Below the pieces are notes generated by a model. That model was given only the letters and a program-made list of their open reading frames with translations, had not been told where the DNA came from and ran no database searches. A program made the translations under genes and the position numbers. From positions 32,001-96,000 of the IMG/VR virus record IMGVR_UViG_3300045988_076196: a stretch of 64,000 nucleotides of DNA; one strand, written 5' to 3'. Each line of letters opens with the position of its first letter. Positions within the stretch are counted from its first letter, which is position 1. This document shows, piece after piece, positions 10,552-40,999 of the stretch. Source of the stretch: a virus.

Positions 10552-10717
10552 AAATCTTGTCTATATTCTTATCAAAATCTAATGGATTGCTGCTCTTTGC
10601 TAAAATCTGCTTGGTGCTGATATTATATAGCTCGAATTGCCCATTGCCGCAATCATTGATAATCCAGCCAGTATCGTCATATTGGACTACGGCGTTAATT
10701 TTCTTTGTTCTTGGCAT
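10487..10717 (-). CDS. Hypothetical protein, first gene of the leftward early operon
   Basis: ORF track, with AGGTGA upstream. The promoter at 10738-10766 is immediately upstream. Confidence 0.6.
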   Translation of the reverse strand: MPRTKKINAVVQYDDTGWIINDCGNGQFELYNISTKQILAKSSNPLDFDKNIDKIFDKETARRVRDFQNEQEKERA

Positions 10718-10737
10718 TTATTTCACCTCATGCTATG

Positions 10738-10766
10738 ATTATATCACATCAATTTGCACTTGTCAA
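10738..10766 (-). promoter_or_regulatory. Consensus sigma70 promoter with extended -10 (leftward, inner)
   Basis: The minus strand reads TTGACA-AGTGCAAATTGATGTGA-TATAAT, that is N17 with TGn before the -10. Confidence 0.7.
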
Positions 10767-10797
10767 GCATAATTTTTGAAAAATTGATTTTTCACAT

Positions 10798-10847
10798 CAA
10801 TTTAACTATTATCTACGAATGTATATGAGTAGATAATAGTTAAATTG
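10798..10847 (-). promoter_or_regulatory. 19-bp perfect hairpin between the two leftward promoters (terminator or operator)
   Basis: CAATTTAACTATTATCTAC, a 12-nt loop, then GTAGATAATAGTTAAATTG. On the minus strand it is followed by A/U-rich sequence containing UUUUU. Confidence 0.5.
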
Positions 10848-10869
10848 TAATTATATATTATATACTAGA

Positions 10870-10898
10870 TATTATATCATAGAAAGTATGTAATGTCA
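10870..10898 (-). promoter_or_regulatory. Consensus sigma70 promoter with extended -10 (leftward, outer)
   Basis: The minus strand reads TTGACA-TTACATACTTTCTATGA-TATAAT. Confidence 0.65.
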
Positions 10899-10923
10899 AT
10901 AGAAAAATTTTTTATTTTACCAC

Positions 10924-10952
10924 TTGACAAAGTGATGAATATATGGTATAAT
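10924..10952 (+). promoter_or_regulatory. Consensus sigma70 promoter with extended -10 (rightward, outer)
   Basis: TTGACA-AAGTGATGAATATATGG-TATAAT. Confidence 0.65.
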
Positions 10953-10962
10953 AATATAGTAA

Positions 10963-10990
10963 ATAAGTAAATACGTTAGTATTTACTTAT
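10963..10990 (+). promoter_or_regulatory. 12-bp hairpin a few nt after the predicted start of the outer rightward promoter, followed by a U-rich tract
   Basis: ATAAGTAAATAC-GTTA-GTATTTACTTAT, then ACATTGTTTCTTTCTTTTGCTTCTTTTCTTTCTT. Confidence 0.5.
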
Positions 10991-11049
10991 ACATTGTTTC
11001 TTTCTTTTGCTTCTTTTCTTTCTTAGAGAGTTATATATGAAAATAATAC

Positions 11050-11078
11050 TTGACATATCTATCATAATATGATATAAT
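11050..11078 (+). promoter_or_regulatory. Consensus sigma70 promoter with extended -10 (rightward, inner)
   Basis: TTGACA-TATCTATCATAATATGA-TATAAT, about 30 nt upstream of the SD of the first rightward gene. Confidence 0.7.
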
Positions 11079-11107
11079 AGCATTAAGCTCAAGGAGGTGG
11101 TAAGAAA

Positions 11108-11251
11108 TTGTGGAGCGAAATGAGCTATAACTGGTATGTATCGGAAGATACAGAACCAGAAGTATGGGATGATGAATATGAGCCAACTGAGCGCGATTGG
11201 TCGCTTTGGATATATGGTAGTTCAGAGAATGATTTAGAGGTGATTTTTTGA
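11108..11251 (+). CDS. 47-aa acidic protein translationally coupled to the polymerase gene
   Basis: AAGGAGGTGG lies 7 nt before the TTG. The translation is MWSEMSYNWYVSEDTEPEVWDDEYEPTERDWSLWIYGSSENDLEVIF. Its TGA overlaps the TTG start at 11248 (TTGA). Confidence 0.5.
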   Translation: MWSEMSYNWYVSEDTEPEVWDDEYEPTERDWSLWIYGSSENDLEVIF

Positions 11252-13131
11252 GCCTACAGACGCAAGTTTATTTGCATTCAGTAGATACGTCATGCTTTTA
11301 TGATGACAACGAAATGACGCTACATAGACGGCTTGTTCGGTTATATTCTTTGCGTAAGCGATGGAAGGATAGTGATAAACCAGATTGGCGTATCAAGTCT
11401 GTAAATCGTTTGCTTAAAAAAGAAAAGGTGCGACTATCTGAATTGCTCGATGATGCAGTGAGACGAAATGAAACTAGAAAATTGCGTCAAGATGCTGTGA
11501 CCGATAAAACGGTTGTTAATCTATTTGAATCTGACTTAACACGCAGCTTAGGACTTGACCCGTTCAAGTTGACAGATGAGCTGTTCATCATTAACGTATT
11601 TTTCTTTCAGGTATTTAATAATCTAGTTCATCAAGGATTTATTTACAATGGTGAAAAATATGTGTTCCTTACAGCATCAGCTGGACAGATAAGAACGAAA
11701 AGAGCCGTATTCGTTAAAGAATCGTCGTTTAAGCGCATTGAGCAAAAATTGATGTGCGGCTTGACCATAGACGAAATCAATGAGCGCGGAGGCATGAATC
11801 AGAATAAATTCCTTGCATATTTGGCGCTTATGAACTCTGCCACAGATGTTTGGGAAGATTTTGATATTGACAAATCAATCGTAGTAGATGATTGGGAAAC
11901 GGCTGTTCCGGGATTGGTTGATCATATTGATGGCGTATCGTATGAGATTCGGCGCGAAATGACAGAGACGATTATTCCTCATATGGACGGATGCGGTATT
12001 ATGCTCAATGAAACAACAAGAATGGTGCGTATGCCATGGGTAAAGGGATTACTTGTTACATTTCCGTTTGATAAGTTTATCAAAGAAAAATGCGGTGGCG
12101 AGGCAACAGTAACGGATATTTATGGCAATGAGCATAAAATTATAGAGGAAGATATACGGTATATATTCACAAAAAGCCAATTCAAGCTATGGAAATTTTA
12201 TGATTCGTGGAATTGTTATAAGGCGCGATTCAAAAATTTTGGATGCAATGCTTGTTATTGCAACATAGAAGAACCGTATATTCCAAAGAGCCGCATCAAT
12301 TATCAGATGCTTCAAACCTTGAGTGATATGACTGATAATGAGATTGATCGCATTATTTCTAAGACTGCGCAAGAGATTGACGATGTTGGTAAAGATTATC
12401 AAGTTACTATGCGGTTACTTGGCGCAACAGAGAACAATCGTTATAAATCAGCTATGCAAGAGGCGTTGCTGATTTATCCTGAATTATTCAAAGATTCATA
12501 TAATCGAGAAATTCTGAAGCAGACTAAAAAGAGCCTAGTTAAACAAGCCAAAGGTGGGCGGCTTAGAGTAAATGGGAAATATTTATTCTTAGCGCCTGAC
12601 TTGTATGCGTTTTGTGAATGGCTGTTCCTAGGTGAGCAGAATCCACAGGGACTGCTTGCAGATGGTGATGTATATACTAATCAATATCGTGATGGTGATG
12701 AATTAGCTTGTTTGCGTTCTCCGCATTTGTATAGGGAATGGGCAATTCGGACAAATAGGCGTAGCTTAGAGCTTGATTATTGGTTTGGTGGAACTAAGTG
12801 TATATATACTAGTTGTCATGATTTAATAACAAGGATAGTTATGGCGGACTGCGACGGTGATAAATTATTGGTTGTAAAAGACCGAACATTGACAAATTGT
12901 GCGAAAAGGAATATGTCTGATATTTGTACTTTGGCATATGATCTCAAAAAGGCGAAGGGAGGTTTGGTAAATTCAGATAGCTTATACGAAGGAATGATTA
13001 GAGCATATACCGGTGGCAACATTGGTATTTGGAGTAATCAAATAACTAAAATTTGGAATAGCGGGAATATTACTAAGGAAGAATTGGACGTTGTAAAATG
13101 GTTGTGTTTTGAGAATAATGCAGTAATTGAT
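11248..13131 (+). CDS. YonO/RdRP-like two-barrel RNA polymerase, exon 1
   Basis: Ordered motifs: YVFLTASAGQIR (aa 138-149), MDGCGIM, PWVKGLLV, LRSPHLYREW and ADCDGD (nt 12844-12861). The frame is cut by a TAA at 13132 directly after ...ENNAVID. Confidence 0.75.
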
Positions 13132-14162
13132 TAAATGATAGTCCACTCATGCGGCAACGCATGATGTGAATGATGGTGAACTCGTAAATGCGAGGTGTGC
13201 GGAGAAATCCGTGCTAACGGTAAAACCCTAAACGTATGAACGCATGGCAATACCGTGGCAAGATTGTGTGATAAATATTAAGATGAAAGGAGGGACAATA
13301 TGAGAAAGATTAGTTTGATTGGCAAGAAATTTGGGAGATTGACGGTTTTATCTGATGCTGGAACAAAAGGTGGTAGAACATATTCTAACTGTCTATGCGA
13401 TTGTGGTAAAATGGTGGTAGTTAGTAACAAACATCTAAAAAGTGGGCATACAAAATCTTGTGGATGTTATAAAAACGAAATTATTGGCGAAATTGGTAAA
13501 ATAACCGGCAAGACAAATATCAAGTATGCGCAAAAGCAAGCACATGAAAATAATAGAAAACATGATATGTCTGGAACAAGATTGTATAGAATTTGGTTAC
13601 AGATGAAACAGAGATGTCACAACGAGAAGAACGACAGGTATCAATATTATGGCGGTAAGGGCGTTTGCGTTTGTGATGAATGGAGAGAAGATTTTCAAGA
13701 ATTTGAACAATGGTCGAATAACAATGGATATAGAGATGACTTGACCATTGATAGAATAAATTCTAATAAAAATTATGAACCGTCTAATTGTCGTTGGATA
13801 TCTCAAAGTGAAAATAGCGCAAGAATACATCGTGATGTGAGATACTGGTGTATTGATGTACAAGGCGGAAGATATGCAGAATTTGACAATATTAGAGAAT
13901 TTTGCAGAAATAATCCTGAGATCGCAAATGAGAATCATGTGAGATACGCTGTTAGCGGAAAATGTGAAAATCAAGGCGATATTATATTTGGCAAGTTTTA
14001 ATATTTTATCACACAATAAGCTGTAACGACTAGCCCATTAGGGCGTAGCTTGTAGGTGAAATTCCTACTCGCAAAGTGCCATCCATCTCTATGAGATGAA
14101 GAGATAGTCTACTCCGACTGTTTGAGCAGTGTTAAAGTATCTCGAAAGAGACGGTATGAAGG
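13132..14162 (+). mobile_element. Group I-like intron carrying an endonuclease ORF
   Basis: The exon frames join exactly (...AVID|YAKTQW...). The 5' exon ends in U and the insert ends in G. There are hairpins with GNRA loops (CATGCG-GCAA-CGCATG; GCGGA-GAAA-TCCGT). CCCTAAA (13226-13232) is shared with the other two inserts. Confidence 0.7.
13300..14001 (+). CDS. Intron-encoded homing endonuclease-like protein (HNH/AP2-like LYRIW...DRI...NCRW family)
   Basis: AAAGGAGGG lies upstream. Motifs are FGRLTVL, a Cys cluster C-x-C-x-C-G...SCGC, LYRIW, YYGGKGV.VC.EW and LTIDRINSNKNYEPSNCRW. It is a paralogue of the gene at 63521. Confidence 0.7.
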   Translation: MRKISLIGKKFGRLTVLSDAGTKGGRTYSNCLCDCGKMVVVSNKHLKSGHTKSCGCYKNEIIGEIGKITGKTNIKYAQKQAHENNRKHDMSGTRLYRIWLQMKQRCHNEKNDRYQYYGGKGVCVCDEWREDFQEFEQWSNNNGYRDDLTIDRINSNKNYEPSNCRWISQSENSARIHRDVRYWCIDVQGGRYAEFDNIREFCRNNPEIANENHVRYAVSGKCENQGDIIFGKF

Positions 14163-14852
14163 TATGCTAAGACGCAATGGTTGCCAGAACGACCAAAACA
14201 AATCAATAATACAATTAAACAATATACAAAAGCCCGTGTTCCAAATTTCTTTCAATATGCAAAAGACAAAGACCCAGATACCCAAGTTGAGCCAGCCAAC
14301 AATTCAACCATGAATCGTATCTCAGCTAAAATCCCTACTTCCAGAATCCGCTATAACAATAAGATTGGGAAATTTGACTGGACTATGCTGATAAATAAAT
14401 CGGTCGATTATACTACTAGAGAAAATTCTTCAATCATTGAGCGGTATAATTGGTGGATATGGAATCAGCGCCGATTTGATTATGGCGATGACCCGCATAT
14501 CAATGAGGATGATTTATATAAATATCGCTGCATTGCACAAGATATAGTAGAATATAGCAACGAGCCACTAGATATTGTGGTGAATAGCCTAGTTGCTTAT
14601 CTATACACAGTTAAAAAATCAAGTAATAAGAAAATGCTATGGGCTTGTTTTGGTTGGACGATTGTAGAAAATTTGAGAATCAATACAGCGCAACTTAATC
14701 CAATCTGTTCCATTTGTGGCAAGCGGTTTAAGCCGAGAGATGTATGCCAGCATTATTGCTCAGAGGAATGTTACAAGAAAGCAGATAATCAGCGGCGCAT
14801 TGAGTCGCGTGAAGCCCCACCTGTCCGCACGGGGGACATGTTAAAACAATAG
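14163..14852 (+). CDS. YonO/RdRP-like RNA polymerase, exon 2
   Basis: The frame is open from 14160 with no SD or start. It continues exon 1 and has a C-terminal CxxC...C...C zinc-ribbon-like tail. It ends in TAG. Confidence 0.7.
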   Translation, partial: YAKTQWLPERPKQINNTIKQYTKARVPNFFQYAKDKDPDTQVEPANNSTMNRISAKIPTSRIRYNNKIGKFDWTMLINKSVDYTTRENSSIIERYNWWIWNQRRFDYGDDPHINEDDLYKYRCIAQDIVEYSNEPLDIVVNSLVAYLYTVKKSSNKKMLWACFGWTIVENLRINTAQLNPICSICGKRFKPRDVCQHYCSEECYKKADNQRRIESREAPPVRTGDMLKQ

Positions 14853-14877
14853 GAAATATATGGATAAAATGAACACA

Positions 14878-14893
14878 CCACAATATATTGTGG
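14878..14893. promoter_or_regulatory. Perfect 16-bp palindrome CCACAATATATTGTGG
   Basis: Read directly, in the 69-nt gap between the polymerase and HU-like genes. Confidence 0.3.
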
Positions 14894-14921
14894 TAGACTA
14901 ATAGGGAAAGGAAAGATATAA

Positions 14922-15341
14922 TTGCATAAAAATAAATATCCTCGGCTTGGTAAAGCTGACATGAGTAAAGAGTTGCGGCGGCGCACAGGTGTTGATTCTA
15001 AGATTATTGAGCTAGTGTTAAGAAACTATCATGACATTATTCGTGAGACACTACAACATGGCGTGGAATATTCTTTGCCCGATATTGGTGTTATTACATT
15101 TCGCGACCACCCACCAAAGCCAGCTGGCGAATATTGGAACGGATTCCAAAAGCGGCGTATGTACTATCCTGACAGAATGGGATATTATCGACTAGAGTTT
15201 AAGGCTGAGAAACATATGGCAAGTGCTGTTAAAGGTGGCACATTGTATGGGAAAGGCGCAACTAAAGAGGAATATGATGCTTGGGTATTGGAGAATTATC
15301 CTGATAATCCCAAGTTTATGAAGGAAGAAGAAGATGGCTGA
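14922..15341 (+). CDS. HU/IHF-like DNA-binding protein 1
   Basis: The pattern SKELRRRTGVDSKIIELVLRNYHDIIRETLQHGVEYSLPDIGVITFRD...YYRLEFKAEKHMASAV follows the HU fold: helix-helix, a G..v.l..iG.f arm, then .Fk....l. The start is a TTG with AAAGGA upstream. Confidence 0.6.
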   Translation: MHKNKYPRLGKADMSKELRRRTGVDSKIIELVLRNYHDIIRETLQHGVEYSLPDIGVITFRDHPPKPAGEYWNGFQKRRMYYPDRMGYYRLEFKAEKHMASAVKGGTLYGKGATKEEYDAWVLENYPDNPKFMKEEEDG

Positions 15342-15897
15342 ACATAATAAGCTGAATCAGGAATTTTATGTTTATGCTGGTGGATTGCTCAATGTATCGC
15401 CCCAGACCGCCAAGAAATACTGGATGGGGTTTGTTGATACTATTATTCATATTCTTCATTTTGATGGCAAGTGTCAAATGCCAAGCATAGGCACATTTAC
15501 GTTAGAAGAATTGCCTGAGCGCAGAGTGATGGCTAAGAATGAGCAGGGTGAACTTGTTGAGCAAATCAACCCTGCTTGGTTTAAGATATTATACAAATAC
15601 AATGAGGATTTTCTTAACAATGTCAATGGGCGTGGCGTTACAAAGAAATATCGTAGGCGCGTCCGTGAACGTAAATTAACACCAAACGATCTCAAGCTAA
15701 TTACTCAAGCAGAAGCAGAACGAACAGCAAAGCGCACGTTGAAACAGATGCAAGATGACCGCATTGAGCAAGCAAGGCAACAGAGCTATGATGATTTTAT
15801 CAATGTGATCAACAAGAAAAAAGAAGACTATGAACGGAAAAAGAAGGAAAAGGAACAGAAATTGAATGAATCTACAGAAGATACGACAAGCGACTGA
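15334..15897 (+). CDS. HU/IHF-like DNA-binding protein 2 with a basic/acidic tail
   Basis: The same fold pattern (SPQTAKKYWMGFVDTIIHILHFDGKCQMPSIGTFTLEE...FKILYKYNEDF). It overlaps the previous gene. Confidence 0.55.
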   Translation: MAEHNKLNQEFYVYAGGLLNVSPQTAKKYWMGFVDTIIHILHFDGKCQMPSIGTFTLEELPERRVMAKNEQGELVEQINPAWFKILYKYNEDFLNNVNGRGVTKKYRRRVRERKLTPNDLKLITQAEAERTAKRTLKQMQDDRIEQARQQSYDDFINVINKKKEDYERKKKEKEQKLNESTEDTTSD

Positions 15898-17065
15898 GCT
15901 GCTAGATAGCAAGTTGATTGACTTGCAAGAATGGACGGCTCGTTGTCTTGGTGAAGATTATAGGGGTGTCTGGTCAGAGGAATATTTACGTCGATGTGCT
16001 GTGTTTGTAAGAAATATGCTCAATAGTGCAGACGATTGTGAATCAGACGAAAAAGACACCAATATTCTATCACAACTCAGAGAGGCTAAGCAGGAACTAG
16101 AGAAATCACGTCTTAAACTGCGCACAGAAAATCTTGAATATGCGGCAAATATGCGCGAGGTGGCACGACATGATATGCTTAATGAAGAAATTGTCGCAGC
16201 TATCAATCGGCTTGAACCAATCAAGTTTAGTCGTAAATTCGAGCCAGACCCAATTAAAGAGCAAATTGGTGTGTTGTGTATTGGCGACGAACATTATGGC
16301 ACAATGATTGATATGGATTCATTATTTGGTGAAAAGGTTAATGTGTATAATCCTGACGTATTCAAGGCGCGAATGGAAAAGCTGATGAATAATATCGAGG
16401 ATGACGCATATTCCGTATCAGCATTCAGCCGTTTGGTTGTGTTTGATATGGGGGATTCCATTCAGGGCGCACTTAGATTATCAGACCTTATGAAGCTCAA
16501 AGCTGGTATTGTAGATAGTGCTATGCAGTATGCCGAATATATCAGTCAATGGCTAGTTGAATTGAGTGAACGTCTACAAGTGCCGATTGAATATATCGCA
16601 GTTGGTGGTAATCATAGCGAATTGAGACTACTCAATGGCAAGAAGGGCGATTTCCAAGAAGATAACATTGCTAAGATCATTACACAGATTGTGCAGTTGC
16701 GACTTAAGGACAATCCAAACATTGAGGTTGCACCATATGCTGAATGTGGGTTTAAGTCAATTCAAGGTGTGAATATCCTAGCATATCATGGTGACGATAC
16801 CAAAGATGTAACTAGAGAAATCGCGTTCTTTGAGGATTATCATCAGATTGATATTGACATTCTACTACTTGGACATTTCCATCATCTTGAGCAACAGTCA
16901 GTTGGTATTGGTTTGAATACTGAAAAAGAGGTCATTAAATGTCCGTCCATTGTTGGTATTGATGATTATAGCAAGAAATGCCGCAAGTTGTCAAGAGCTG
17001 GTGCATTGCTCATGCTGTTTGAAGATGGGCAAAAGACGTGGACTAAGAAATATATTTTGAATTGA
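15866..17065 (+). CDS. Calcineurin-like metallophosphoesterase with an N-terminal coiled coil
   Basis: Ordered motifs GDEH, GDS.QG, GGNH, H and GHFHH. Confidence 0.7.
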   Translation: MNLQKIRQATELLDSKLIDLQEWTARCLGEDYRGVWSEEYLRRCAVFVRNMLNSADDCESDEKDTNILSQLREAKQELEKSRLKLRTENLEYAANMREVARHDMLNEEIVAAINRLEPIKFSRKFEPDPIKEQIGVLCIGDEHYGTMIDMDSLFGEKVNVYNPDVFKARMEKLMNNIEDDAYSVSAFSRLVVFDMGDSIQGALRLSDLMKLKAGIVDSAMQYAEYISQWLVELSERLQVPIEYIAVGGNHSELRLLNGKKGDFQEDNIAKIITQIVQLRLKDNPNIEVAPYAECGFKSIQGVNILAYHGDDTKDVTREIAFFEDYHQIDIDILLLGHFHHLEQQSVGIGLNTEKEVIKCPSIVGIDDYSKKCRKLSRAGALLMLFEDGQKTWTKKYILN

Positions 17066-17562
17066 TTCATTCTCTGCTAGGTGATAGCTAGTTTAGCTGT
17101 GTTAATCATGCTTGTGGGGCGATTGACCTATCTAGTAGAGTTGAATATATCTCATGTACCATGCGTACAAGGAGTTTTCAGAGCCGTGTATGGCGGCCCT
17201 TGTAAGACAAAAAAACATAACAGAGGGTGGCGCTAGATGCCCGATGGCGCTTGATAAATGGGGTTTTAATAGTTGTATCTAGGTATATACTGTAACTGCC
17301 TGTCGCTATGCCCATTGGCGGCTATGAATATCCGAAAGGAGGTCACTATTCTCTTGAATTATCCACTGGTTTATCCGAAGCATAATTAAAGAAAGGATGG
17401 TGGTCAGAGCCAATCGGCTCATATCTACAATAAGCCCAACTCAATGGGAACTGTTGTTTAACTGAATATTGAACCTTGACAAATACGAAGCAGCTGAGAG
17501 CAATCTTGGCTGCTTTGTCATATTTATAGGAAAATAAACGGAAAGGAAGGAAGTAGCAAAAT

Positions 17563-18403: not shown

Positions 18404-20248
18404 ATGAAGAGTCAAATGGGAGGACTTCGTAGGAAGTTTATGTCCAACCACTTAATCACGACCGAGGCATGGTCTGGTAAAAGCAAATCGGAAGAGAAAG
18501 AGCAAAACGCAATAGAGTGGCTGACTCTTTTTTAGTTCCGTAGGAATTGGCACATATATGTAGATATGGTGCTTGGTATTAAGCTAAGGCCATTCCAGAT
18601 GGTTATGATATATTTAATGGGTATATCTCCATTCTTTTATGCAATCTGTTCTAGAGGTTTGTCAAAATCATTTATGGCTGGACTTGGAGCAATATGTAAG
18701 ATGAATCTATATCCGTATAGCGAGATTGTTATTACATCGTCTACTGTTCAACAGGCTAATAAATTAGCTGATAAAAAGATACGCGATGAAATAATTAAGA
18801 AGCTCTCAAGTTATTTGTTATACATGTACGAGCATGAGTATATAGTTATAACAAAGCCGGATGATGGTACAAAGATAGAAAATAAGTTAAATGGCTCAAC
18901 TATTGTTGTATTGCCGTGTACTGAGGCAAGCCGTGGTGAACGTGCAACACTGCTTATTTATGAAGAGGTGCGTTTGCTTAAAAAGACAATTCTTGATGCG
19001 GTCTTTGAAAAGATGCCACACCCAAGACAGGCCAAATATATGGATAATCCTGTTTATGGGAATAATAAACGATGGATTGAAGAATGCCAGCGTATCTACA
19101 TTACGTCCGCAAGATATAAATATGAATGGTTTTGGCGTTCTTTTAAGAATGTGTTCACTCAGCATTTTATAGACAAGCGCGTCAATCATAATGTTTTTGC
19201 TGGTGATATATTTATGGCAATAGATAATCGCTTAAAGACGTGGGCTGATTATCGCAAAGACAAGGCGGAGTCTGAGATGGATTGGAAAATGGAAGACCTC
19301 AACCAGATGATAGGCGAGGCTGAGGATGCGTTTTTCACATACGAGCAATTTAAGACAGCGCAAATTTTACAGCATTGTTTTAGACCTCTTACATACCTTG
19401 ATTTCTTCTCTGGTGAACAGGTTGATTTTCCAGAGAAAAAGGAAGATGAAGTGCGACTCGTTGTGGTTGACTACGCATTTTCCAACACTACTGGTTGTAC
19501 AAAGAACGACAATACCATTATTACGCTCATGTCGGCGCATTGGGATAAAAAGAAAAATCGGTTTGAACGTCATATTGATTATATAGAGGGACATGATGCT
19601 TCTGACACAATAGGCGCATCTGATAGAGCGAGATACTTATGGTGGGTATATGATGCGGATTATCTATGTCCCGATGGACGCTCTGGTGGTGAAGTTCTAT
19701 TCAATCATATGACAGAGCCATTGTCTTGGCCGGAATTAGGACTTAGGTGGAATAAGCACGGATTAGGTCTTGCAGATAAATACCAGATGGTTCCACAAGC
19801 AAAATTGGATGATTATAGAAGTCGTGTCGTTGACAAAGATGCAGTTCCAGCTATTATACCCGTGATAGGCACACCAGAGTTGAACTCTACTGGTTGGTTG
19901 TCACTGCGTAAACAGCTTGAAACTAACAATATGAAATTCCTTATTTCTATGCAAGATTATCAGAATGAGCTAACAGATAGTGGTGAATATTATAAATATA
20001 CTGCTGAAGAATTAGTTAATCAGCTTGAGCCATACGGACAGACAGATATGACAATCATAGAGGCAGTTAATCTAAAGACGGTTATTAAGCAAGATAAAAT
20101 CAAACTAGAAGAACCGCGCACAGGAACTAAGGATAGAATTGTAACCATTATGTATGGAAATTATATTATTGACTTGATTGAGAACGCATGGCAACAACAG
20201 TTACAAGAAGATGAGTTTGATGTTGATTCGATTCAATTAGTATATTAG
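18404..20248 (+). CDS. terL: Terminase large subunit with an in-frame TAG at 18533-18535
   Basis: Walker A-like CSRGLSKS, Walker B-like LLIYEEV and nuclease-like VVVDYAFS. GGTGGTGA SD precedes the ATG at 18404, but there is no SD before the track start at 18566. The frame is continuous through the TAG (...AIEWLTLF*RRNWHIYVDMVLGIKLRPFQ). Confidence 0.8.
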
Positions 20249-20398
20249 TATTTGCCTATGAAGCGGTAGCTATGTTGGTGTGTTGCCGTGGAGGCACTAT
20301 TAGGGTTGTGTGGAATCCAAGTTCCAACTGAGGCTTAATCAAAAAAAGTTGAAAATAAAAACACTCAAAAAATATAAAACAAGGAAAGGAGGTTGAAG

Positions 20399-21976
20399 AT
20401 GCCAAAAAATAATGAAGATGTGAAGCTGTCTAAAAATGACCTTCAGGATATTATTGATTTTAGTGCAGGTCTGATGGCGGTTGATAATTTTTACTCACCA
20501 TTTCTGAGCAACCAGCTATTGACCAATCTAAACAATAATCCTCGTCTACCTAATGCAGAGGCGGTAAAAAAGGCGCTCAATGATTATAAGAATAGCGGCG
20601 CCGATTTACAGGGTTTTGTAGAATTTGCATCAGCGTTTGATATGATTTTCAAGCGCACTTTATATTCTTATGCAAATGCGCTATCTTTCGACCTTCAGAT
20701 AACGTGCAAAAATGCATATACAAAGGGCGACTATGAATCAGAGGAATATAAGAAAGACCGGCAGACAGTAGATAATTTCTTGACCAATTTTGATTACAAG
20801 AAAGAATTTTATAATGTTCTGCTAAATGTCTTAAAGCGCGACTCATATTTTACTTGGTTTAGAAAGACTAAGAGCGGTAATCGCGGCAAGATGAAGTATG
20901 CTCTACAAATTATGCCACAAGATTATTGTATGCTTACGGGGTACTTTGAAAAAGGGTTGCTGTGGTCTTTTAATGTACTGTATTTTATGCAACCGGGCGT
21001 AGATATTGAGGGATTTGACCCAAGTCTCAAAAAGACATATCTTGATGCGATTGAAAATGCTGAGTTAAATTACAAGCCGTCTGCGCCACTCGATAAACGT
21101 AATGGTAGTTATGCTCTATGGGCAGATGTATCACCACTTAATGGTGCTTATGCTTGGAAATTTTCTACAGATAACTTTGCTAACAATCCATTCTTATCGC
21201 CATATGTAGCAAATGTTTTACGTAGTGATGAGGTTGGAGAATTACAGTATAACAAAGATCTTATCTCTGCGGCTGGTATTCTAGCTGGTGAGATTAGATT
21301 ATTTGATTCAGCCAAGTCAGGCACGAAGGCGAATCAGTTCGCCATTGATCCGAAAACGCTTGGTGCATTTATGCAAAAGGCGGCTAATGGACTAAAGAAT
21401 GCTGCCAAACTAGCAGCTATACCACTTGAGAATATTAAATATTTCCAATTTGAGGATAAGAACCCAAATAGCTATACAAATGAGCTAACTACAACAGCTG
21501 GTATTGGTACTGGCATTAGCCGTGTTATCTATTCATCCGATAAGATGAGTAATGCTGAACTAGAGGCGGCGCTTAATGAGGTCTATCAGACCATGAAGCC
21601 AATGTATGCTCAGTTCAATAATTTCCTTGATTTCTATGTGAATCAAATGACAAGCAAATATAAGTTTAAGTTTGAGTTTGTTGGTTCTAACTATCAATTT
21701 GAGCGCGATGCTAGATTTGATAAGATGATGAAAATGGCTGATAAGGGGCTTGTACTCAATTCATCTGCATGGGCTAGTGCTGTTGGTATGAACCCTGTCA
21801 CATTTGATAGGATGCTTGCTGAGAGTAAATATACTGGATGGATTGATAAGTATTCGACCATGATGCTTAACGCTAATACATCGTCTTACAAAGATAATAA
21901 GGGCGGGCGTGAACGCAAGAACGCTAGAGATTTGACCGATTCAGGCGAAGCAAGCCGAGAAACATTAGAGGAATGA
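20399..21976 (+). CDS. Portal protein (by size and position)
   Basis: About 525 aa, directly after terL. AAAGGAGG lies upstream. Confidence 0.6.
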   Translation: MPKNNEDVKLSKNDLQDIIDFSAGLMAVDNFYSPFLSNQLLTNLNNNPRLPNAEAVKKALNDYKNSGADLQGFVEFASAFDMIFKRTLYSYANALSFDLQITCKNAYTKGDYESEEYKKDRQTVDNFLTNFDYKKEFYNVLLNVLKRDSYFTWFRKTKSGNRGKMKYALQIMPQDYCMLTGYFEKGLLWSFNVLYFMQPGVDIEGFDPSLKKTYLDAIENAELNYKPSAPLDKRNGSYALWADVSPLNGAYAWKFSTDNFANNPFLSPYVANVLRSDEVGELQYNKDLISAAGILAGEIRLFDSAKSGTKANQFAIDPKTLGAFMQKAANGLKNAAKLAAIPLENIKYFQFEDKNPNSYTNELTTTAGIGTGISRVIYSSDKMSNAELEAALNEVYQTMKPMYAQFNNFLDFYVNQMTSKYKFKFEFVGSNYQFERDARFDKMMKMADKGLVLNSSAWASAVGMNPVTFDRMLAESKYTGWIDKYSTMMLNANTSSYKDNKGGRERKNARDLTDSGEASRETLEE

Positions 21977-30526: not shown

Positions 30527-30555
30527 TTGACATATTTATAACAATGTGATATAAT
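30527..30555 (+). promoter_or_regulatory. Consensus promoter inside the intron
   Basis: TTGACA-TATTTATAACAATGTGA-TATAAT (N17, TGn extended -10). Confidence 0.6.
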
Positions 30556-30767
30556 ATACATGGGAAACTTTCAACGAATATCTCCTTGTGGGAGAAGTAG
30601 AACCTCAAGCATATGGAGGAAGAAAAATCCGACCCCTATAAAATAGGGTGAACATATATTCTACTCTCATGTGAAAGCATGAGCAGACTGCTAGTAATAG
30701 TAAGTCGATATTGGCGTTGCGAACCAATATGAATACAAAATATTTTATACTAAAAGGAATGTTATGT

Positions 30768-31841
30768 ATGTTGTTATCAAAAGTTGTTAAGTTGAAATGG
30801 AACACAAAGAATAGAAAACATTACGAAAGTATTGGATATATATTTACTAAATATGGTGATGAATTTGATGTAAAAGTCGAAGATTTGACACCTTCTAGTA
30901 AAGTTGTTGTTGAGGTTGAATGTGACTTTTGTCATAGCGTTGTTGTGAAAAAGAAATATCAAACATATAATATACAGCATCACGAAAAATATGGGGATTG
31001 TTGTGCATCATGCCAATCTAAAAAGAATAAGTTGATATGTATGGATAAATATGGCGTTGACAATGGTTCTAAGACAGAATATGCCATTGAAAAAATAAAA
31101 CAAGTTAGTATGGAGAGATATGGTGTAGATAACCCATCTAAGATAAGCGATGTAAGACGCAAGTTAAGCGAAATAGCTAAGGCTAATTCAGAAGATGTTA
31201 TCACTAAGAGAAATCAGACCATGCTAGAAAAATATGGCACGACATCACCAATGGACTTAGATATTGTCAAAGAGAAACAACGTGATACTCTATTGAAGAA
31301 TTATGGCGTTGAGCATCCAAAGCAAAGTGAAGAAATAAAAATGAGAGAACGTCAACGGAATATTGAGAAATATGGTGTTGATAATCCTATGAAACTTAAA
31401 TCCGTAAGAGATAAGATAAAGGCAACGTGTCTTGAAAAATATGGCGTTGAATGCTCATTAAGCTCACCAGATGTTAGAGCTAAAATTAACAAAACATTAC
31501 TTGAAAATGGTAATGTAAAAACATCTAAACAACAACTTCAACTACAACAACTATTAAAAGAAATATATGGAGATTGTGACTTAAACAAGCCGTGTGGTTC
31601 ATGCTTTCTTGATTGTGTAATTGAATATAATGGTGTCAATATAGATATTGAATATGATGGTGAATATTGGCATCAAGATACACAACAAGATAGGCGTAGA
31701 GACGAATTTGTCAAATCACAAGGATATAAAATTCTGCGCATTCGTGGAAGATATGACATTCCAAATAAAGAACAACTTGTGAAACATATTGAAGAATTGG
31801 TAAATTCACAACATACATTCGATATAATTAAAATGGTATAA
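30768..31841 (+). CDS. Intron-encoded endonuclease: six YGV(D/E)NP-type repeats plus a C-terminal Vsr/EDxHD-like nuclease domain
   Basis: Repeats of the form KYGVDNGSK, RYGVDNPSK, KYGTTSP, NYGVEHPKQ, KYGVDNPMK and KYGVECSL occur about every 27 aa. The C-terminal segment is NIDIEYDGEYWHQDTQQDRRRDEFVKSQGYKILRIRG. The track start at 30711 is probably too early (AAAGGAA precedes the ATG at 30768). Confidence 0.7.
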   Translation: MLLSKVVKLKWNTKNRKHYESIGYIFTKYGDEFDVKVEDLTPSSKVVVEVECDFCHSVVVKKKYQTYNIQHHEKYGDCCASCQSKKNKLICMDKYGVDNGSKTEYAIEKIKQVSMERYGVDNPSKISDVRRKLSEIAKANSEDVITKRNQTMLEKYGTTSPMDLDIVKEKQRDTLLKNYGVEHPKQSEEIKMRERQRNIEKYGVDNPMKLKSVRDKIKATCLEKYGVECSLSSPDVRAKINKTLLENGNVKTSKQQLQLQQLLKEIYGDCDLNKPCGSCFLDCVIEYNGVNIDIEYDGEYWHQDTQQDRRRDEFVKSQGYKILRIRGRYDIPNKEQLVKHIEELVNSQHTFDIIKMV

Positions 31842-35920: not shown

Positions 35921-38900
35921 TCAGAGATGGTTGAAGCCGCAACGGAATTTCGCAAGAATAGTTTTAATGATTCTGATTCGGCAACGCTAGCAAAAGTAGC
36001 GACAATGTTTACTAATGTAGCAGATGAATCTATGTCTGCTGCTGATAGCGCATCGTTTATTATAGCTCAGATGAAGGCATTCAATATAGAGGCTGATGAT
36101 GCTTATAGGATCATCGATTCTGTGAATGCTGTGTCAAATAATTATGCCGTTTCATCTGGGCAATTAGCACAAAATCTAGGTAATATGTCTGCTGCAATGG
36201 CAACAGGCAATAATACATTTGAACAGTCTCTTGGTATGCTCACGGCTATGACTGAAATCACGAGGAATGCACCCAAGGGTTCAAGAGCGCTTATTACTGT
36301 ACAGGGACGTCTGAATCAGGTTGTAGACGAATCCTCAGATACGGGTAAGGCGTTAACAGCATGGTATCAAGAACACGCCATCGCTATTAAAGATGATGAA
36401 GGTCAAGTTCGTAGTCTATATGAAGTATTGACTGATGTAGCAAAGATTTGGCCTAAATTAACCAAGAATGAGCAGATGTACTATCTGCAACAGCAAGCAG
36501 GAACCACACAAACACAGAATCTTGCTGCTCTTCTAAAAAATTATCAAACAGCTATTGATGCAACCAATACAGCGCTAGAATCCAATGGTTCTGCCATGAA
36601 AGAAAATGAAGCCTACATGGAATCAATTTCTGCGAAGGAACAGGCTCTTGCAGCTGAATTTGAGGATTTTGCAAATCGTGTTTTATCTAAAGAGTTGGTT
36701 GGTGGATTCTTGGATGCTGGTAAAGCTATGCTTGATTTTGCCAACAATGATGTTGGTGCGGCCATTACTAGGATCACTGGATTCTCTACTACTATTGCAA
36801 GCTTAGTTGGTATTGCAGGTACGGTTATTGGAAAACTAAGTGAGATGAGAACATTGTTCTCAGCGACAAATGCAGCTGGCGGATTAGCGTCTATTTTAAC
36901 CTCACCAAAGACATTACTTATTATTGCAGGAGTAGCAGCAGCTATTGCTGGAATAGTTGAAGTTGTACAAGCGTTAAATCAGGCAGCAGAAAATAGGAAA
37001 TTTGAAAATCTTGTAAAGAATTTTGAAGAACTTGATAAACAAGCCAAAGACGCTGCTGATAAGCTTGAAGACGTCAAAAAGCGACTTGATGAGTTAAATG
37101 ATACTCCTGCAAAAGATAGAGGTCAAGATTGGCAGAATGAAATAGACAAACTTGAGACATTAAAGCAATATTATGAATATATTGAACAAATGCTTCAAAA
37201 ACAAGCTGCCGCTGCTCAAGAAGCTGCTTATAACGCTCCTCGTACTGTTGGTGTATCTGTTGATAAGAAAGTTGTTGAAACAGACGAGTATAGTAATAAT
37301 TTTCAAACATATATAAAAGAAATCGGTCAATATAAGACTGAACAGGAAGCTGTATATGCTCTTGCTGCTCAAGAGAGTATATCTTTTACAAATGAGCAAA
37401 CAGAGGCGCTATCAAAGTTGTATGATGAGACAGAGATAGCCGCACAGGGTTATGCTTATTTGAAACAAAACCTAGAAGATATTGGCTATACGTTCTCCAA
37501 CAACATTCAGACTGCTTCTGAATATGCATTATCTCAAGGCTCTGCTATGAAGGGTTTGGCCGTACAGATTGAAGAAACTAAAAAATATAGCACAGAGCTT
37601 ACACAGGCACAACAAGAGCAATACGATGCTTACATAAAGAATAATCAAGGACAGTATGAGTATCTGTCAGGTCTTCATAATTTAACAACTGAGCAACAAG
37701 CGTTCGTTGATGGATATAAAGCCATGGTTGATGCCATGGGTGATTATTCAGTTAATGTCGAAAATGTAGCTAATGAAGTTGAAAATATATCTAATTCGTT
37801 TGCGTATTATAATGAAATTGTAACGAACTATCAGGATGCAATGAATGGTGTAACCGGAGCTTCTGAAGCATTCGTTCAATCTCTGTTTGACCAAAATGGA
37901 CAATTAACTACAACAGCTCAAACGGCGCTAACCACAGACAGTGCGATGGCGAGTTACGCTACTTCTATCATACAGGCGCAACAAGCACAGTCTCAGGCTA
38001 ACTTTAATAATCTTATTCAGCAGATTGCATCAGTTGGACAACAGGCCACAATAACTTCCGAACAAATTGCTAATATGATGGTGATGGCTGGTGTTCAAAT
38101 TGGTGCTGGTGGTAGCGCTGAGCTTTCTAGGAATCTACAACGTACATACGAAGCTAAAACTGGCAAGAAAGTATCGCAGGACAAAGCTGCGTACAAACAA
38201 TGGTTACAAGATACCGCCTACCAAATCGGTCAAAATCAATGGAAACGTCAGCAAGAGGAATATGCGAAACAGCTTGAAGCCATAAAAGATTATGTCCCAG
38301 CAGAAAAAGCCGCCGAAGAAGCAGAAAAGCAAGCTAAGAAAGCCCAAAAAGCGCAAGAAAAGGCGGCTAATGAATCTCAGTCGGCATATGAATCAGCCGC
38401 AAAATCAGCAGAGCAAGCCGCGCAAGAAGCAGCTCGTGCCGCTGAACAAGCCGCAAAATCAGCAGAGCAAGACGCGCAAGAAGCAGCTCGTGCCGCTGAA
38501 CAAGCCGCTGAGGAAGCCAAGCAGAAAATTCTTGATTCTATCCAAGAACTAAAAGACGCATCTGATGATTTCTGGGATAGCAAAACAGACGCTGTTGAAG
38601 AAACCAACAAAGAGCTAGACCGCCAAAAGCAACTTGAAGAAAAGCTCAAAGCGCTAGAAGAAGCCAAACAAAAGAAAATCCTACTCTATAAGAACGGCCA
38701 GTTCCAATATGACAAGGATTATGGGACGATTGCTAAAGCTCAAGCTGATTATGAAGAAACCCGCGACAAGATTCAGCGCGAACGTGAGCTAGAGCAGCTT
38801 CAAGAGATGAAGGATAACGCCACTAAGATATTCAATGAAATGAAGGATATTGTTCAGAATGGCGGCAATGTCACTCAAGAGATGATTAACAGTTGGCTTT

Positions 38901-40999
38901 CTCAGATGCAAGCCGATGGGGCTGATTATTATGATAGCAACAAGAAAATGCTTGGTGAATGGCTGGATTGGGCTAAGGGTGCTATCAATGAAATTAGCAA
39001 CCAAGTAGCATCTGCTACTGGAGGTAGCGGAGGCGCTAGTGGTGGTTATGGTTCCGGTAGTGGCAGTGTTTCTGGACAATGGAGTCATCAAGACGAAACA
39101 AATCCATATGTTGCTTTTGGACAAGATACAATCCAAGAGATGCTTGAATGGATAAAAAAGATAGATAAATATCAAGACGATGAAGAGTTTATGAATGAGA
39201 TAATACGAAGAGCTGCTAGTGCTGGATATATTATTCCATCTAATGCAGGACTTCGTGGCAATCTAAAAATGAATCTTCTTGAAGCTCTTCAAAAAATTCT
39301 AGCGCCATATCAAAATCTAATTGAAACTAACACATCCAGCCCGTATGTTTATGCATGGAAGGGTTTATTTAAGGGTGAACTTCAGAGAGGTACTGACCTA
39401 GGTAGCAACACTGTATTTGCAGGATATCAGAACAAACTTTTGTCTGGCGCTATCGATGACCCATATGAAGAGCAGGAATATTATCAACGCAATCAAGCCA
39501 TAAAAGCTCTATACAATGAATACAAGAAAATAACAGACCAGCTTGGCTATATTCCAGATTATCTGAAAGATTTTATGGATATGGGGTCACAAATGCTCAA
39601 CAATGTTGACCTTGTTGCTAGAAAAATGGCTGATAATTACGATAATTTGTCTGCTAGTGGTAAAAGCCTGTTGGATTCTCTCATATCTGGCGAAGAGGAC
39701 TATGAGGCGGCTAATAAGATGCGCATTGCATATCTAGCCGAGAATTATAGTCCAGAGCGTCTTAGATATATGAATCTAGTCCGGGTGGCTGGTTCTTCCA
39801 GAAATGCAATGCAGTTGATGAATCAACGCACAGAGGAAGATAAAGCCCGTGATGAGGCACTGTATGGCGATTGGCTAAATGAGCTACGAGATAAGATAGA
39901 CAAAGCTGGCGGTGTTGTAACAGATGAGATTTACAAGTGGTATCTAAAAACAGCTGGTGGAGCATTAGGTGCTTATGGAACTGGCGACGCTCAGCTATAT
40001 ACAGATGTGTTTGCTGGTGGCGGCAAATATTTATATCGTGATCAAGAAGAGCTAGAGAGGCTTGGTTATCATGGATTCTTAGGTAATTTTGGCAACATCA
40101 GCGAAGGCGGGTTGTCTGATGTAACTAAGAATCTTGTTAAGAGCAAAATCCTAACGTCTACCACAGAAACAAACATTGATAAGCAAAAAGAGCAGATAAC
40201 TCAGAATAATATCAAAGGCATTAAAGATACTCTTGAGAAATATCAAGAGGGATATGGCGCAACTCAACACTGGATTGATGATGCAACCAAATACATCACT
40301 GATACTCTGAATAAAAACAACGAGGCGTTGTTGACAGCTGATGCAGAAACAAGAAAATCTTTACTTGCTCAAAATGAAGAGCTTGTGGGTATTCGTGATT
40401 CTCTTAGTGGTGTTGAGGCTGATGAAGATATTAACAAATTACCCGGCTCAACAACTGCTTACAATGATTGGGAGTTCAAGATTGATAACCCAACAGATGA
40501 AGAACTTGCGGCAAAAGCAGAACAACGTGCGCAAAAGTTGGCAGAACAAATGGCGGCAAATTCAGAGGCATGGTGGAACGCTAGTTCTAAAGCAGAGCAA
40601 GACGCTTTACACAAAGCAAACGAGGAGCTTGCTAAGAAAATCAATGATTTGACTGGTAGTAATTTGACATATGAGGGGTCGACTGGCACATGGTCAAAGA
40701 ACGCCTCTGGTACTCATAATTTCCGTGGTGGTCTATCCTTAGTTGGTGAGCGTGGCCCAGAGCTTAGAGTTCTTGGGCAAGGTGATAGTATCATTCCAGC
40801 TTATCAAACGGCAAACCTATGGAAATGGAGCGGTACAACACCTGAGAGTATGCTCAAAACGCTTGAATTGAGAAAAGGCGATGGGCGAAATTCTTACGTA
40901 TTCAATGTGTCTAAGCTCGAATTACCAAATGTTAACAATGCAAAGGAATTTGTGGCTGGACTAAAGAATTATGCGCTACAGTATAGTTATAAACGTTAA
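35921..40999 (+). CDS. Tape measure protein, exon 2
   Basis: The frame is open from 35918 with no SD. SEMVEAATEFRKNSF...AQMKAFNI... is the typical tape-measure core. It has long coiled-coil regions, Gly-rich and TM-like segments, and about 1690 codons. Confidence 0.9.
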   Translation, partial: SEMVEAATEFRKNSFNDSDSATLAKVATMFTNVADESMSAADSASFIIAQMKAFNIEADDAYRIIDSVNAVSNNYAVSSGQLAQNLGNMSAAMATGNNTFEQSLGMLTAMTEITRNAPKGSRALITVQGRLNQVVDESSDTGKALTAWYQEHAIAIKDDEGQVRSLYEVLTDVAKIWPKLTKNEQMYYLQQQAGTTQTQNLAALLKNYQTAIDATNTALESNGSAMKENEAYMESISAKEQALAAEFEDFANRVLSKELVGGFLDAGKAMLDFANNDVGAAITRITGFSTTIASLVGIAGTVIGKLSEMRTLFSATNAAGGLASILTSPKTLLIIAGVAAAIAGIVEVVQALNQAAENRKFENLVKNFEELDKQAKDAADKLEDVKKRLDELNDTPAKDRGQDWQNEIDKLETLKQYYEYIEQMLQKQAAAAQEAAYNAPRTVGVSVDKKVVETDEYSNNFQTYIKEIGQYKTEQEAVYALAAQESISFTNEQTEALSKLYDETEIAAQGYAYLKQNLEDIGYTFSNNIQTASEYALSQGSAMKGLAVQIEETKKYSTELTQAQQEQYDAYIKNNQGQYEYLSGLHNLTTEQQAFVDGYKAMVDAMGDYSVNVENVANEVENISNSFAYYNEIVTNYQDAMNGVTGASEAFVQSLFDQNGQLTTTAQTALTTDSAMASYATSIIQAQQAQSQANFNNLIQQIASVGQQATITSEQIANMMVMAGVQIGAGGSAELSRNLQRTYEAKTGKKVSQDKAAYKQWLQDTAYQIGQNQWKRQQEEYAKQLEAIKDYVPAEKAAEEAEKQAKKAQKAQEKAANESQSAYESAAKSAEQAAQEAARAAEQAAKSAEQDAQEAARAAEQAAEEAKQKILDSIQELKDASDDFWDSKTDAVEETNKELDRQKQLEEKLKALEEAKQKKILLYKNGQFQYDKDYGTIAKAQADYEETRDKIQRERELEQLQEMKDNATKIFNEMKDIVQNGGNVTQEMINSWLSQMQADGADYYDSNKKMLGEWLDWAKGAINEISNQVASATGGSGGASGGYGSGSGSVSGQWSHQDETNPYVAFGQDTIQEMLEWIKKIDKYQDDEEFMNEIIRRAASAGYIIPSNAGLRGNLKMNLLEALQKILAPYQNLIETNTSSPYVYAWKGLFKGELQRGTDLGSNTVFAGYQNKLLSGAIDDPYEEQEYYQRNQAIKALYNEYKKITDQLGYIPDYLKDFMDMGSQMLNNVDLVARKMADNYDNLSASGKSLLDSLISGEEDYEAANKMRIAYLAENYSPERLRYMNLVRVAGSSRNAMQLMNQRTEEDKARDEALYGDWLNELRDKIDKAGGVVTDEIYKWYLKTAGGALGAYGTGDAQLYTDVFAGGGKYLYRDQEELERLGYHGFLGNFGNISEGGLSDVTKNLVKSKILTSTTETNIDKQKEQITQNNIKGIKDTLEKYQEGYGATQHWIDDATKYITDTLNKNNEALLTADAETRKSLLAQNEELVGIRDSLSGVEADEDINKLPGSTTAYNDWEFKIDNPTDEELAAKAEQRAQKLAEQMAANSEAWWNASSKAEQDALHKANEELAKKINDLTGSNLTYEGSTGTWSKNASGTHNFRGGLSLVGERGPELRVLGQGDSIIPAYQTANLWKWSGTTPESMLKTLELRKGDGRNSYVFNVSKLELPNVNNAKEFVAGLKNYALQYSYKR
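38396..38503 (+). repeat. Tandem 54-nt (18-aa) repeat x2 inside the tape measure gene
   Basis: 38396-38449 and 38450-38503 differ at 1 nt (AAKSAEQAAQEAARAAEQ versus AAKSAEQDAQEAARAAEQ). Confidence 0.85.

Follow-up and report, generated by a model that had tools for sequence, protein, structure and literature searches.

The window studied here, a 64,000-nucleotide stretch from the virus record IMGVR_UViG_3300045988_076196 (positions 32,001 to 96,000 of that record), holds three consecutive open reading frames (ORFs) on its + strand, at 11248-13134 (628 aa), 13300-14001 (233 aa) and 14181-14852. The question raised by this locus is whether these are separate genes or parts of one interrupted gene for a phage RNA polymerase (RNAP) related to YonO of the Bacillus prophage SPbeta. 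With a probability of roughly 0.88, the locus encodes a YonO-type late-gene transcriptase of 857 aa whose gene is split by a self-splicing group I intron. The polymerase is a further member of the YonO family, characterised since 2017, and as a core finding it is not novel in kind; the understanding of that family is unchanged, and the series of intron alleles set out below is a modest addition.

Joining 11248-13131 to 14163-14852 gives 628 + 229 codons and a stop, a product of 857 aa with no internal stop, which confirms the codon counts that the initial annotation had given for the gene after removal of an insert at 13132-14162. Exon 1 (11248-13131, codons 1-628) starts with a TTG codon and contains both predicted beta-barrel regions, while exon 2 (14163-14852, codons 629-857 and the stop) encodes a C-terminal helical domain with a Cys4 cluster. 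In a PHROG profile search the 847 positions of phrog_8308 are matched at 2-644 by exon 1 and at 651-845 by exon 2, and because the profile is thus covered end to end by both, the two ORFs are the halves of one gene. A tblastn search of 50,697 phage records matched residues 3-628 to SPbeta yonO (46.8% identity, E 3e-172), and also found Clostridium phage D-1873 (51.6%) and Psychrobacillus phage Perkons (45%). An alignment of the spliced protein with YonO (839 aa) spans 815 columns at 46% identity and is unbroken at the junction (...ENNAVID|YAKTQWLPERP in the window, ...ENNFTID|FAKTLFMPTRP in YonO). YonO, previously named as a relative, is therefore a direct orthologue, with 46-47% identity over the full length and conserved synteny. 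A large protein database holds more than 4,000 homologues at E < 1e-5, and uninterrupted homologues at 93%, 87% and 82% identity span 100% of the spliced query.

The five motifs claimed for this protein are found in the spliced product at exactly the residues and nucleotides given for them: YVFLTASAGQIR (aa 138-149), MDGCGIM (aa 246-252), PWVKGLLV (aa 263-270), LRSPHLYREW (aa 489-498) and ADCDGD (aa 533-538, nt 12844-12861). All five lie in exon 1, and their block order is that of the eukaryotic-type RNA-dependent RNA polymerases (RdRPs), as had been proposed. Across 50 aligned homologues at 43-93% identity, each motif holds invariant residues. The invariant positions are A145, I148, R149 and K151; D247, G248 and G250; R261, P263, K266 and G267; R490, P492 and H493; and D534, D536, G537 and D538. 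The last set belongs to the catalytic DxDGD (D534, C535, D536, G537, D538; 12847-12861 on the + strand), whose aspartate triad is thus conserved throughout the alignment and has an equivalent that is essential in SPbeta YonO. The C-terminal cysteines C810, C813, C827 and C831 are also invariant.

The relation to two-barrel polymerases is borne out at the profile and at the fold level. By the terms of the initial annotation, a lack of profile or structural matches to such polymerases, or a variable DxDGD triad, would have spoken against it, and neither was observed. The Pfam family RdRP (PF05183) matches residues 118-476 with 32 bits against a gathering cut-off of 23.8 (E 7.5e-8). An AlphaFold2 model built on the homologue alignment (mean predicted local distance difference test, pLDDT, 90.4; predicted template modelling score, pTM, 0.86) has clusters of beta-strands at 210-271 and 439-564, around the motifs. 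In a Foldseek search of the PDB with this model, the top 21 hits were all two-barrel RdRPs (E 1e-18 to 1e-11, probability 1.00), namely RDR2 of maize and Arabidopsis and QDE-1 of Neurospora and Thielavia, behind which came weak hits to bacterial beta-prime and Pol II Rpb1 chains. The matches to QDE-1 and RDR2 have template modelling (TM) scores of 0.41-0.54 over about 800-960 columns, with only 10-13% sequence identity to the window protein. The best hits among the predicted viral structures of BFVD are phage proteins named 'RNA dependent RNA polymerase', and one weak match (E 9e-5) is a protein of the phage record cr118_1, whose name suggests a crAss-like phage. The crAss-like virion RNAP is itself a phage two-barrel single-chain RNA polymerase.

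The names of these matches bring up the possibility that the enzyme is a true RNA-dependent RNA polymerase that copies or amplifies phage or host RNA. PF05183 is the only Pfam family hit, all strong PDB matches are to the eukaryotic RdRPs RDR2 and QDE-1, and several database homologues carry the RdRP name, but these names derive from the Pfam label and not from assays. RDR2 and QDE-1 are eukaryotic RNA-silencing enzymes working on RNA templates. The YonO lineage, in contrast, depends on DNA: the orthologue YonO is a processive, strictly DNA-dependent RNA polymerase that is needed in vivo for late transcription from a double-stranded DNA genome (Forrest et al. 2017, PMC5467207). With 46% identity to YonO and the same gene neighbours, the window gene is very unlikely to encode an RNA-copying enzyme. 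The label 'RdRP-like' in the initial annotation holds for fold and ancestry and fails for the template, and by orthology the gene product would be a YonO-type two-barrel DNA-dependent RNA polymerase.

In the work on SPbeta, YonO preferred DNA templates, RNA products and nucleoside triphosphates, and its aspartate triad was essential, the mutant with all three aspartates changed to asparagine (3D>3N) being inactive (PMC5467207). YonO is induced together with the prophage, and deletion of yonO abolishes plaques and silences 37 late structural and lysis genes; the late genes form one operon with a start site upstream of yonK (PMC5467207). The same study demonstrated experimentally a switch from host to phage RNAP, and left the YonO promoter and possible cofactors to be determined (PMC5467207). 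The window enzyme resembles YonO in its length class (857 vs 839 aa), in its motifs including D.DGD, and in the C-terminal Cys cluster. Of the known relatives of the cellular multi-subunit RNA polymerases, YonO-type enzymes are the smallest; they bear on the origin of transcription and are potential compact orthogonal polymerases.

The segment between the exons, 13132-14162 on the + strand, had been noted simply as an insert. It is a true group I intron, 1031 nt long and IA-like in carrying P7.1 and P7.2 hairpins; its structure is supported by covariation, and self-splicing would follow from that structure. Its boundaries were set three ways, by the coverage of phrog_8308, by the YonO alignment and by two intron-less alleles (L004 and L005, 87% DNA identity). 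The latter align up to 13132 and again from 14166 on, and lack exactly the 1031-nt block; they read ...ATAGAT|TGCGCT at the junction (in longer form GCTGTTATAGATTGCGCTAAGACG). The predicted ligated junction in the window is ...ATTGAT|TATGCT... (...GTAATTGAT|TATGCTAAG...), across which the frame is continuous after excision. P1 is formed by GAT|TA (13129-13133) with TAGTC (13139-13143) and contains the U.G pair U13131-G13141, and P7 is formed by GACTA (14028-14032) with TAGTC (14105-14109). The intron follows a U and ends in G14162, and a U before the intron and a G at its end are found in 5/5 alleles sharing the site.

A structure derived by hand was mapped onto an alignment of five sequences from which the ORF-bearing loops had been trimmed. 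It comprises P1, P2, a two-segment P3, two extra hairpins, P4, P6, P7, P7.1, P7.2, P8, P9 and P9.1, with the extra hairpins placed between the P3 5' strand and P4. Across 14 helices and 66 pairs, 99.4% of the 325 cells are standard pairs, a percentage that is favoured by the structure having come from the same sequences. The compensatory counts are not favoured in this way: 29 of the 66 pairs changed on both sides, compared with 0-4 when the 3' partner was slid by 1-3 columns, and none of 500 shuffles reached the observed pairing values. The covarying helices include the long-range P3 (GAUGG/CCAUC in the window, GUCAG/CUGAC in the Bacillus phage Goe11), P4, P6 and the P7 pseudoknot. All 66 scored pairs are standard in the window copy. 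The last 60 nt of the intron (P7 3' strand, P9 and P9.1) are 81-92% identical to elements within or beside the DNA polymerase, dnaE and terminase genes of Bacillus, Staphylococcus, Enterococcus and Lactobacillus phages.

The intron lies between D628 and Y629, in the stretch ENNxxID|xAKT, where N624, I627, D628 and K631 are invariant and N623, A630 and T632 nearly so. In the AlphaFold2 model a helix of 23 residues (610-632), located after the catalytic barrel, ends at this point with its C-terminus. Together with the intron site, the invariant residues mark functionally critical parts of the YonO family.

Gene callers give products of 628 and 625 aa in many contigs and in Bacillus genomes, the corresponding pieces are annotated as yonO_1 and yonO_2 in the phages vB_BsuS-Goe11 and Goe14, and exon 1 alone has both barrel regions and the DxDGD. 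These facts would suit two separate polypeptides, of 628 aa and of 223 aa from a TTG at 14181, that assemble as split subunits around an endonuclease cassette with no splicing. Such an arrangement is extremely unlikely. Outside its ORF the insert is conserved as a ribozyme, the 29 compensatory pairs of which include the long-range P3, P4, P6 and P7, and an endonuclease cassette does not account for the ORF-less inserts of 291 and 410 nt at the same site. The residues A630, K631 and T632 are encoded between 14163 and the TTG at 14181 and would be lost without splicing, and the sequence before 14181 has no Shine-Dalgarno.

Some observations weigh against the reading of the locus as an intron-split, functional yonO. 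HMMER searches of all PDB chain sequences with the protein and with the 50-sequence profile returned chance hits only, so that it is the predicted fold and the Pfam model that tie the protein to solved two-barrel enzymes; no YonO-family member with a deposited structure appears to be present in the PDB copy searched. The two-barrel single-chain fold of about 100 kDa is a prediction, assigned from whole-model fold matches and not barrel by barrel. The Rfam group I model RF00028 has a gathering score of 50, which is reached neither in the window (26.6 bits, E 8e-4, for the 3' half) nor in the ORF-less allele L006 (34.2 bits, E 1.7e-5, for the complete model from the exon boundary), and the model gives no hit on Goe11. 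In the window the endonuclease ORF disrupts the model, and because RF00028 misses this family at threshold, the intron call rests on covariation and on the splice-site features. The segment of SPbeta with the P_YonO start site (primer pair at L001 9282-9524) has no counterpart in the window. Lastly, splicing, polymerase activity, template specificity and the target genes in this phage are what we infer.

Taken at their strongest, the Rfam score below threshold, the failure to identify a late phage-type promoter and the presence of a few promoter-like sites of 11 or 12/12 in the late block would point to a decaying pseudogene, in which the intron does not splice or the allele is inactive and the late genes are left to host RNA polymerase. 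Set against this are two intact exons that keep every invariant residue of the family, the standard pairing of all scored ribozyme positions, the U at the splice site and the terminal G, and an intact endonuclease ORF with a strong ribosome-binding site. The intron arrangement also recurs in Goe11 and Goe14, which are viable and form plaques, and yonO is essential in SPbeta. Decay of the gene is thus scarcely credible, and an intact, intron-split yonO is the preferred reading.

The 233-aa ORF at 13300-14001 (+) encodes a homing endonuclease of HNH type (phrog_374 'HNH endonuclease', E 3e-64). Four more HNH or restriction endonuclease PHROGs match this ORF, and Pfam gave no family for it at E up to 0.1. 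Its Shine-Dalgarno is AAAGGAGG, 6 nt before the ATG. The ORF lies within an extension and loop of P6a (13263-14017, +), enclosed by a 13-bp stem of ATTGTGTGATAAA (13263-13275) and TTTATCACACAAT (14005-14017). A homologous ORF occupies the same loop in the L009 intron, while in the ORF-less L006 the whole of 13263-14017 is replaced by 13 nt.

The polymerase gene appears to be a recurrent home of a mobile group I intron, with a natural series of alleles at one codon. Alleles of the first kind have no intron (L004, L005). The second kind is a bare ribozyme of 291 nt (L006, L007) or 410 nt (L008), in which both non-coding flanks are kept and only the segment equivalent to 13263-14017 is gone, and the third is the HNH version found in the window and L009. 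The fourth is a 1290-nt intron in Goe11 and Goe14 with a 300-aa GIY-YIG-like ORF in another loop. A fifth kind consists of ten truncated 'hypothetical proteins' of 618-625 aa from Bacillus velezensis and other Bacillus genomes, which seem to share this split form of yonO. The introns of Goe11, Goe14 and the B. velezensis prophages are homologous to that of the window, sharing the site ...ID|xAKT, the P1 pairing GAT|TA/TAGTC, the terminal G and the core helices, which compensatory changes have preserved. They differ in the position of the ORF, since the GIY-YIG-like ORF of Goe11 and Goe14 is upstream of the P5/P4 3' strands whereas the HNH ORF of the window is in P6a.

The Goe11 and Goe14 records carry no intron annotation and list the pieces as the coding sequences yonO_1 and yonO_2, the paper on these phages does not mention an intron, and neither do the SPbeta review or the full-text literature that was searched. 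The yonO intron is thus apparently present in public data but undescribed in the literature searched, and the split yonO genes that are annotated as two genes or as hypothetical proteins in public genomes call for an annotation correction.

At the yonO locus of Goe11 (L002 2980-6777), exon 1 is 99.8% identical to SPbeta yonO, but the first 470 nt of exon 2 are only 87.8% identical. This divergence of exon 2 looks like a co-conversion tract that remained after the intron homed in from a diverged donor.

A related arrangement is found in L010 (1171-4330) and L011, which were kept out of the covariation set for want of a firm 3' splice site. The insert starts 3 nt upstream, after ...GCTGTGATT, its P1 pairs GTGATT with GGTCAC, and a GIY-YIG ORF lies inside it. 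Exon 2 seems to start at GATTGTGCA, after ...TATATATTAC, in which case the last base of the intron is not a G. Relatives of this form are 83-88% identical, and one cluster has 3014 member sequences. In L010 an additional ORF, NUMOD3 endonuclease-like, separates the yonP-like ORF from yonO.

The intron fits a known group of Firmicute phage introns, such as those of SPbeta bnrdE and bnrdF, the SPO1-like DNA polymerase and terminase genes, in having P7.1 and P7.2 hairpins and an endonuclease ORF in a peripheral loop. It differs from them in the two extra hairpins between the P3 5' strand and P4, and in its host gene, as a phage RNA polymerase is not mentioned as an intron host in the literature searched.

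Since the intron opens with an in-frame TAA (13132-13134), an unspliced mRNA would yield only the 628-aa product of exon 1. The intron could in principle act as a gate or timer of the early-to-late switch: until splicing became more efficient, the 628-aa core, which lacks the Cys4 domain, might compete as an inactive form or work with a different specificity. This role is unlikely, and selfish mobility better fits a series in which some alleles lack the intron, some lack the ORF and three bear endonucleases.

The likely course of expression can be pieced together from this arrangement. Host sigma-A RNA polymerase would start at 10924 and/or 11050 and transcribe a yonP-like ORF together with yonO, giving a primary transcript with the 1031-nt intron between D628 and Y629. 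The intron is expected to fold as a P1-P9.1 ribozyme, to excise itself with guanosine and to join U13131 to U14163; where it does not splice, translation would end at the TAA that opens it. The spliced mRNA would give the full polymerase, with D534, D536 and D538 binding the catalytic Mg2+, and by orthology and synteny this polymerase may transcribe the downstream rightward block as YonO does in SPbeta. The HNH endonuclease in the P6a loop would cut intron-less yonO in co-infecting relatives, into which the intron would then be copied, as the allelic series suggests.

Two perfect host-type promoters had been reported ahead of the polymerase gene, and both are present, with a yonP-like ORF lying between them and the gene. 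The distal sigma-A/sigma-70-type promoter-like site is at 10924-10952 (+; 12/12 with TG, TTGACA-17-TGnTATAAT), and the second is at 11050-11078 (+; 12/12 with TG), about 30 nt upstream of the yonP-like ORF. Two further perfect sites face left (10899-10871 and 10766-10738), so the intergenic region 10717-11108 is a divergent hub of four perfect 12/12, TG-extended sigma-A-type sites. The yonP-like leader ORF (47 aa, 11108-11251, +) has no Pfam hit, and the same arrangement is seen in L004, L005, L006, L008 and yonP-yonO of SPbeta. Its stop overlaps the TTG start codon of the polymerase (TTGA), which suggests translational coupling.

The position of the gene ahead of the structural genes was also correctly recognised, in that the strand carrying it goes on to encode the portal (20393-21976, +), the tape measure (35927-40999, +) and tail proteins. 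These belong to a rightward block at 17563-57234 (+), as judged from the ORF map and PHROG hits, with + strand ORFs continuing to about 57.2 kb, and the block is the presumed target of the phage polymerase, by analogy with SPbeta. Promoter-like sites of 11 or 12/12 are few within this block. Over about 46 kb rightward from the start of yonO, the sole further perfect + site (30527-30555) fronts a homing-endonuclease-like and not a structural ORF. Early transcription by host and late transcription by phage polymerase fits this promoter pattern, without being proven by it. The promoter placement agrees with the host-to-phage RNAP switch proposed earlier; the switch itself is established for SPbeta and would extend to the window phage by analogy.

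The free-standing ORF behind the site at 30527-30555 (376 aa; phrog_12131, E 3e-38; site and ORF together at 30527-31841, +) lies within the structural block. It may be another mobile cassette or mark another split gene.

The gene neighbourhood resembles that of SPbeta in having a yonP-like ORF upstream, yonN-like and yonJ-like genes downstream, and a position at the head of the rightward structural block. The yonN-like gene (14922-15341, +) encodes an HU-family DNA-binding protein (Pfam Bac_DNA_binding, 25.3 bits vs 22.4) and occupies the yonN slot of SPbeta. The yonJ-like exonuclease gene (15866-17065, +; phrog_284 exonuclease, E 2e-45) serves as a synteny marker, and its homologues in L005, L006 and L010 match Pfam YonJ_CC. 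The two phages differ in several respects. SPbeta yonO is uninterrupted, whereas the window copy has the 1031-nt group I intron with its HNH endonuclease. In SPbeta, yonN is followed by 1.7 kb of non-coding leader ahead of yonK-yonJ, whereas the window has ORF187-yonJ and then a 0.5-kb gap. Between yonO and the structural genes of the window, sizeable non-coding gaps are confined to 14853-14921 and 17066-17562. The host of SPbeta is Bacillus subtilis, whereas the window phage comes from uncultivated, probably gut, sources. The gene order of SPbeta, and with it a likely hand-over from host to phage polymerase, thus reaches well beyond Bacillus. In L005 (6259-7368), the nearest relative without the intron, an IS605/OrfB gene (TnpB, Cas12f-like) is inserted after the yonJ-like gene, and the window lacks it at that place.

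Other phages carry enzymes of the same broad kind. The tape-measure-fused virion RNAP of Thermus phage P23-45 belongs to the same two-barrel superfamily and is distinct from T7-like enzymes (bioRxiv 10.1101/2022.12.01.518664). The RNAPs of P23-45 and the crAss-like phages are packaged in the virion, act on early genes and are much larger or are fused with other domains, whereas the window enzyme, likened to them by description, is free-standing and, as in the case of YonO, would be middle-expressed and dedicated to late genes.

At the DNA level, a search of the phage collection gave no close record, and the sole match to other phages was the last 60 nt of the intron. The nearest proteins to the polymerase are from metagenome assemblies. 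In genome data the nearest relatives, at 63-73% identity, are short contigs assigned to gut metagenome-assembled genomes (MAGs) whose taxonomy is mutually inconsistent, with the labels Gastranaerophilales, Muribaculaceae, Rickettsiales, Bacilli, Clostridia and Tenericutes. A host call from these labels was dropped, as the conflicting bins were read as mis-binned phage DNA. The window phage is an uncultivated SPbeta-like phage, probably of gut origin, for which the type of promoter and the relatives of the intron make a Firmicute host plausible.

An invariant 26-nt element, TA.CTCATGTACCATG(N1-2)GTACAAGGAGTT, is located at 17151-17176 (+), where a non-coding gap follows the yonJ-like gene. It is the only non-coding sequence shared with SPbeta (L001 10264-10286), and it has 57 exact hits in viral contigs (L036-L092) where about 0.05 are expected, with flanks that fall into at least 8 unrelated families. 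A yonO-family gene precedes the element by 1.2-2.7 kb on the same strand at 23 loci, and at none does it lie downstream or on the opposite strand. The element also occurs in Rhizobium phages of about 200 kb that lack YonO (L093 7001-7022), where its neighbours are tRNA genes and a TROVE (Ro60-like) gene; in L069 a tRNA-like sequence immediately precedes it. Rfam gave no hit for the element, and its folding energy is ordinary (z 0.10). It was rejected as a YonO promoter, as in SPbeta some 0.8 kb separate it from the mapped start upstream, and as it is missing from L004 and L005, and is present in the YonO-less Rhizobium phages. In SPbeta-like phages the intergenic region between yonR and yonP, the counterpart of the promoter hub at 10717-11108 in the window, holds the opening point of the genome and the packaging (pac) site (bioRxiv 10.1101/2021.11.22.469490), and the element was also rejected as a pac site, since that of SPbeta is between yonR and yonP.

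Several structured RNAs are found in this part of the genomes. A drum RNA (Rfam RF02958, 49.7 bits vs a gathering score of 43) is at 20253-20369 (+), between a 560-aa ORF (18566-20248) and the portal gene. In L006 a drum RNA (41.9 bits) comes just after the yonJ-like gene, which in the window is the slot of the 26-nt element. About 95 nt beyond the SPbeta copy of that element there is a DUF3800-VIII RNA (RF03075, 47.5 bits), and in Goe11 and Goe14 a skipping-rope RNA directly follows yonN.

Further to the right, a 182-aa ORF on the - strand (58665-59213) matches ThyX (Pfam Thy1) over profile positions 148-190/191 only, with neighbouring ORFs extending to 60136. This suggests that the thymidylate synthase gene at 58665-59213 may be interrupted or fragmentary too. 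The ORF adjoins genes for a dUTPase (57858-58355) and a class II-like ribonucleotide reductase (60147-62447).

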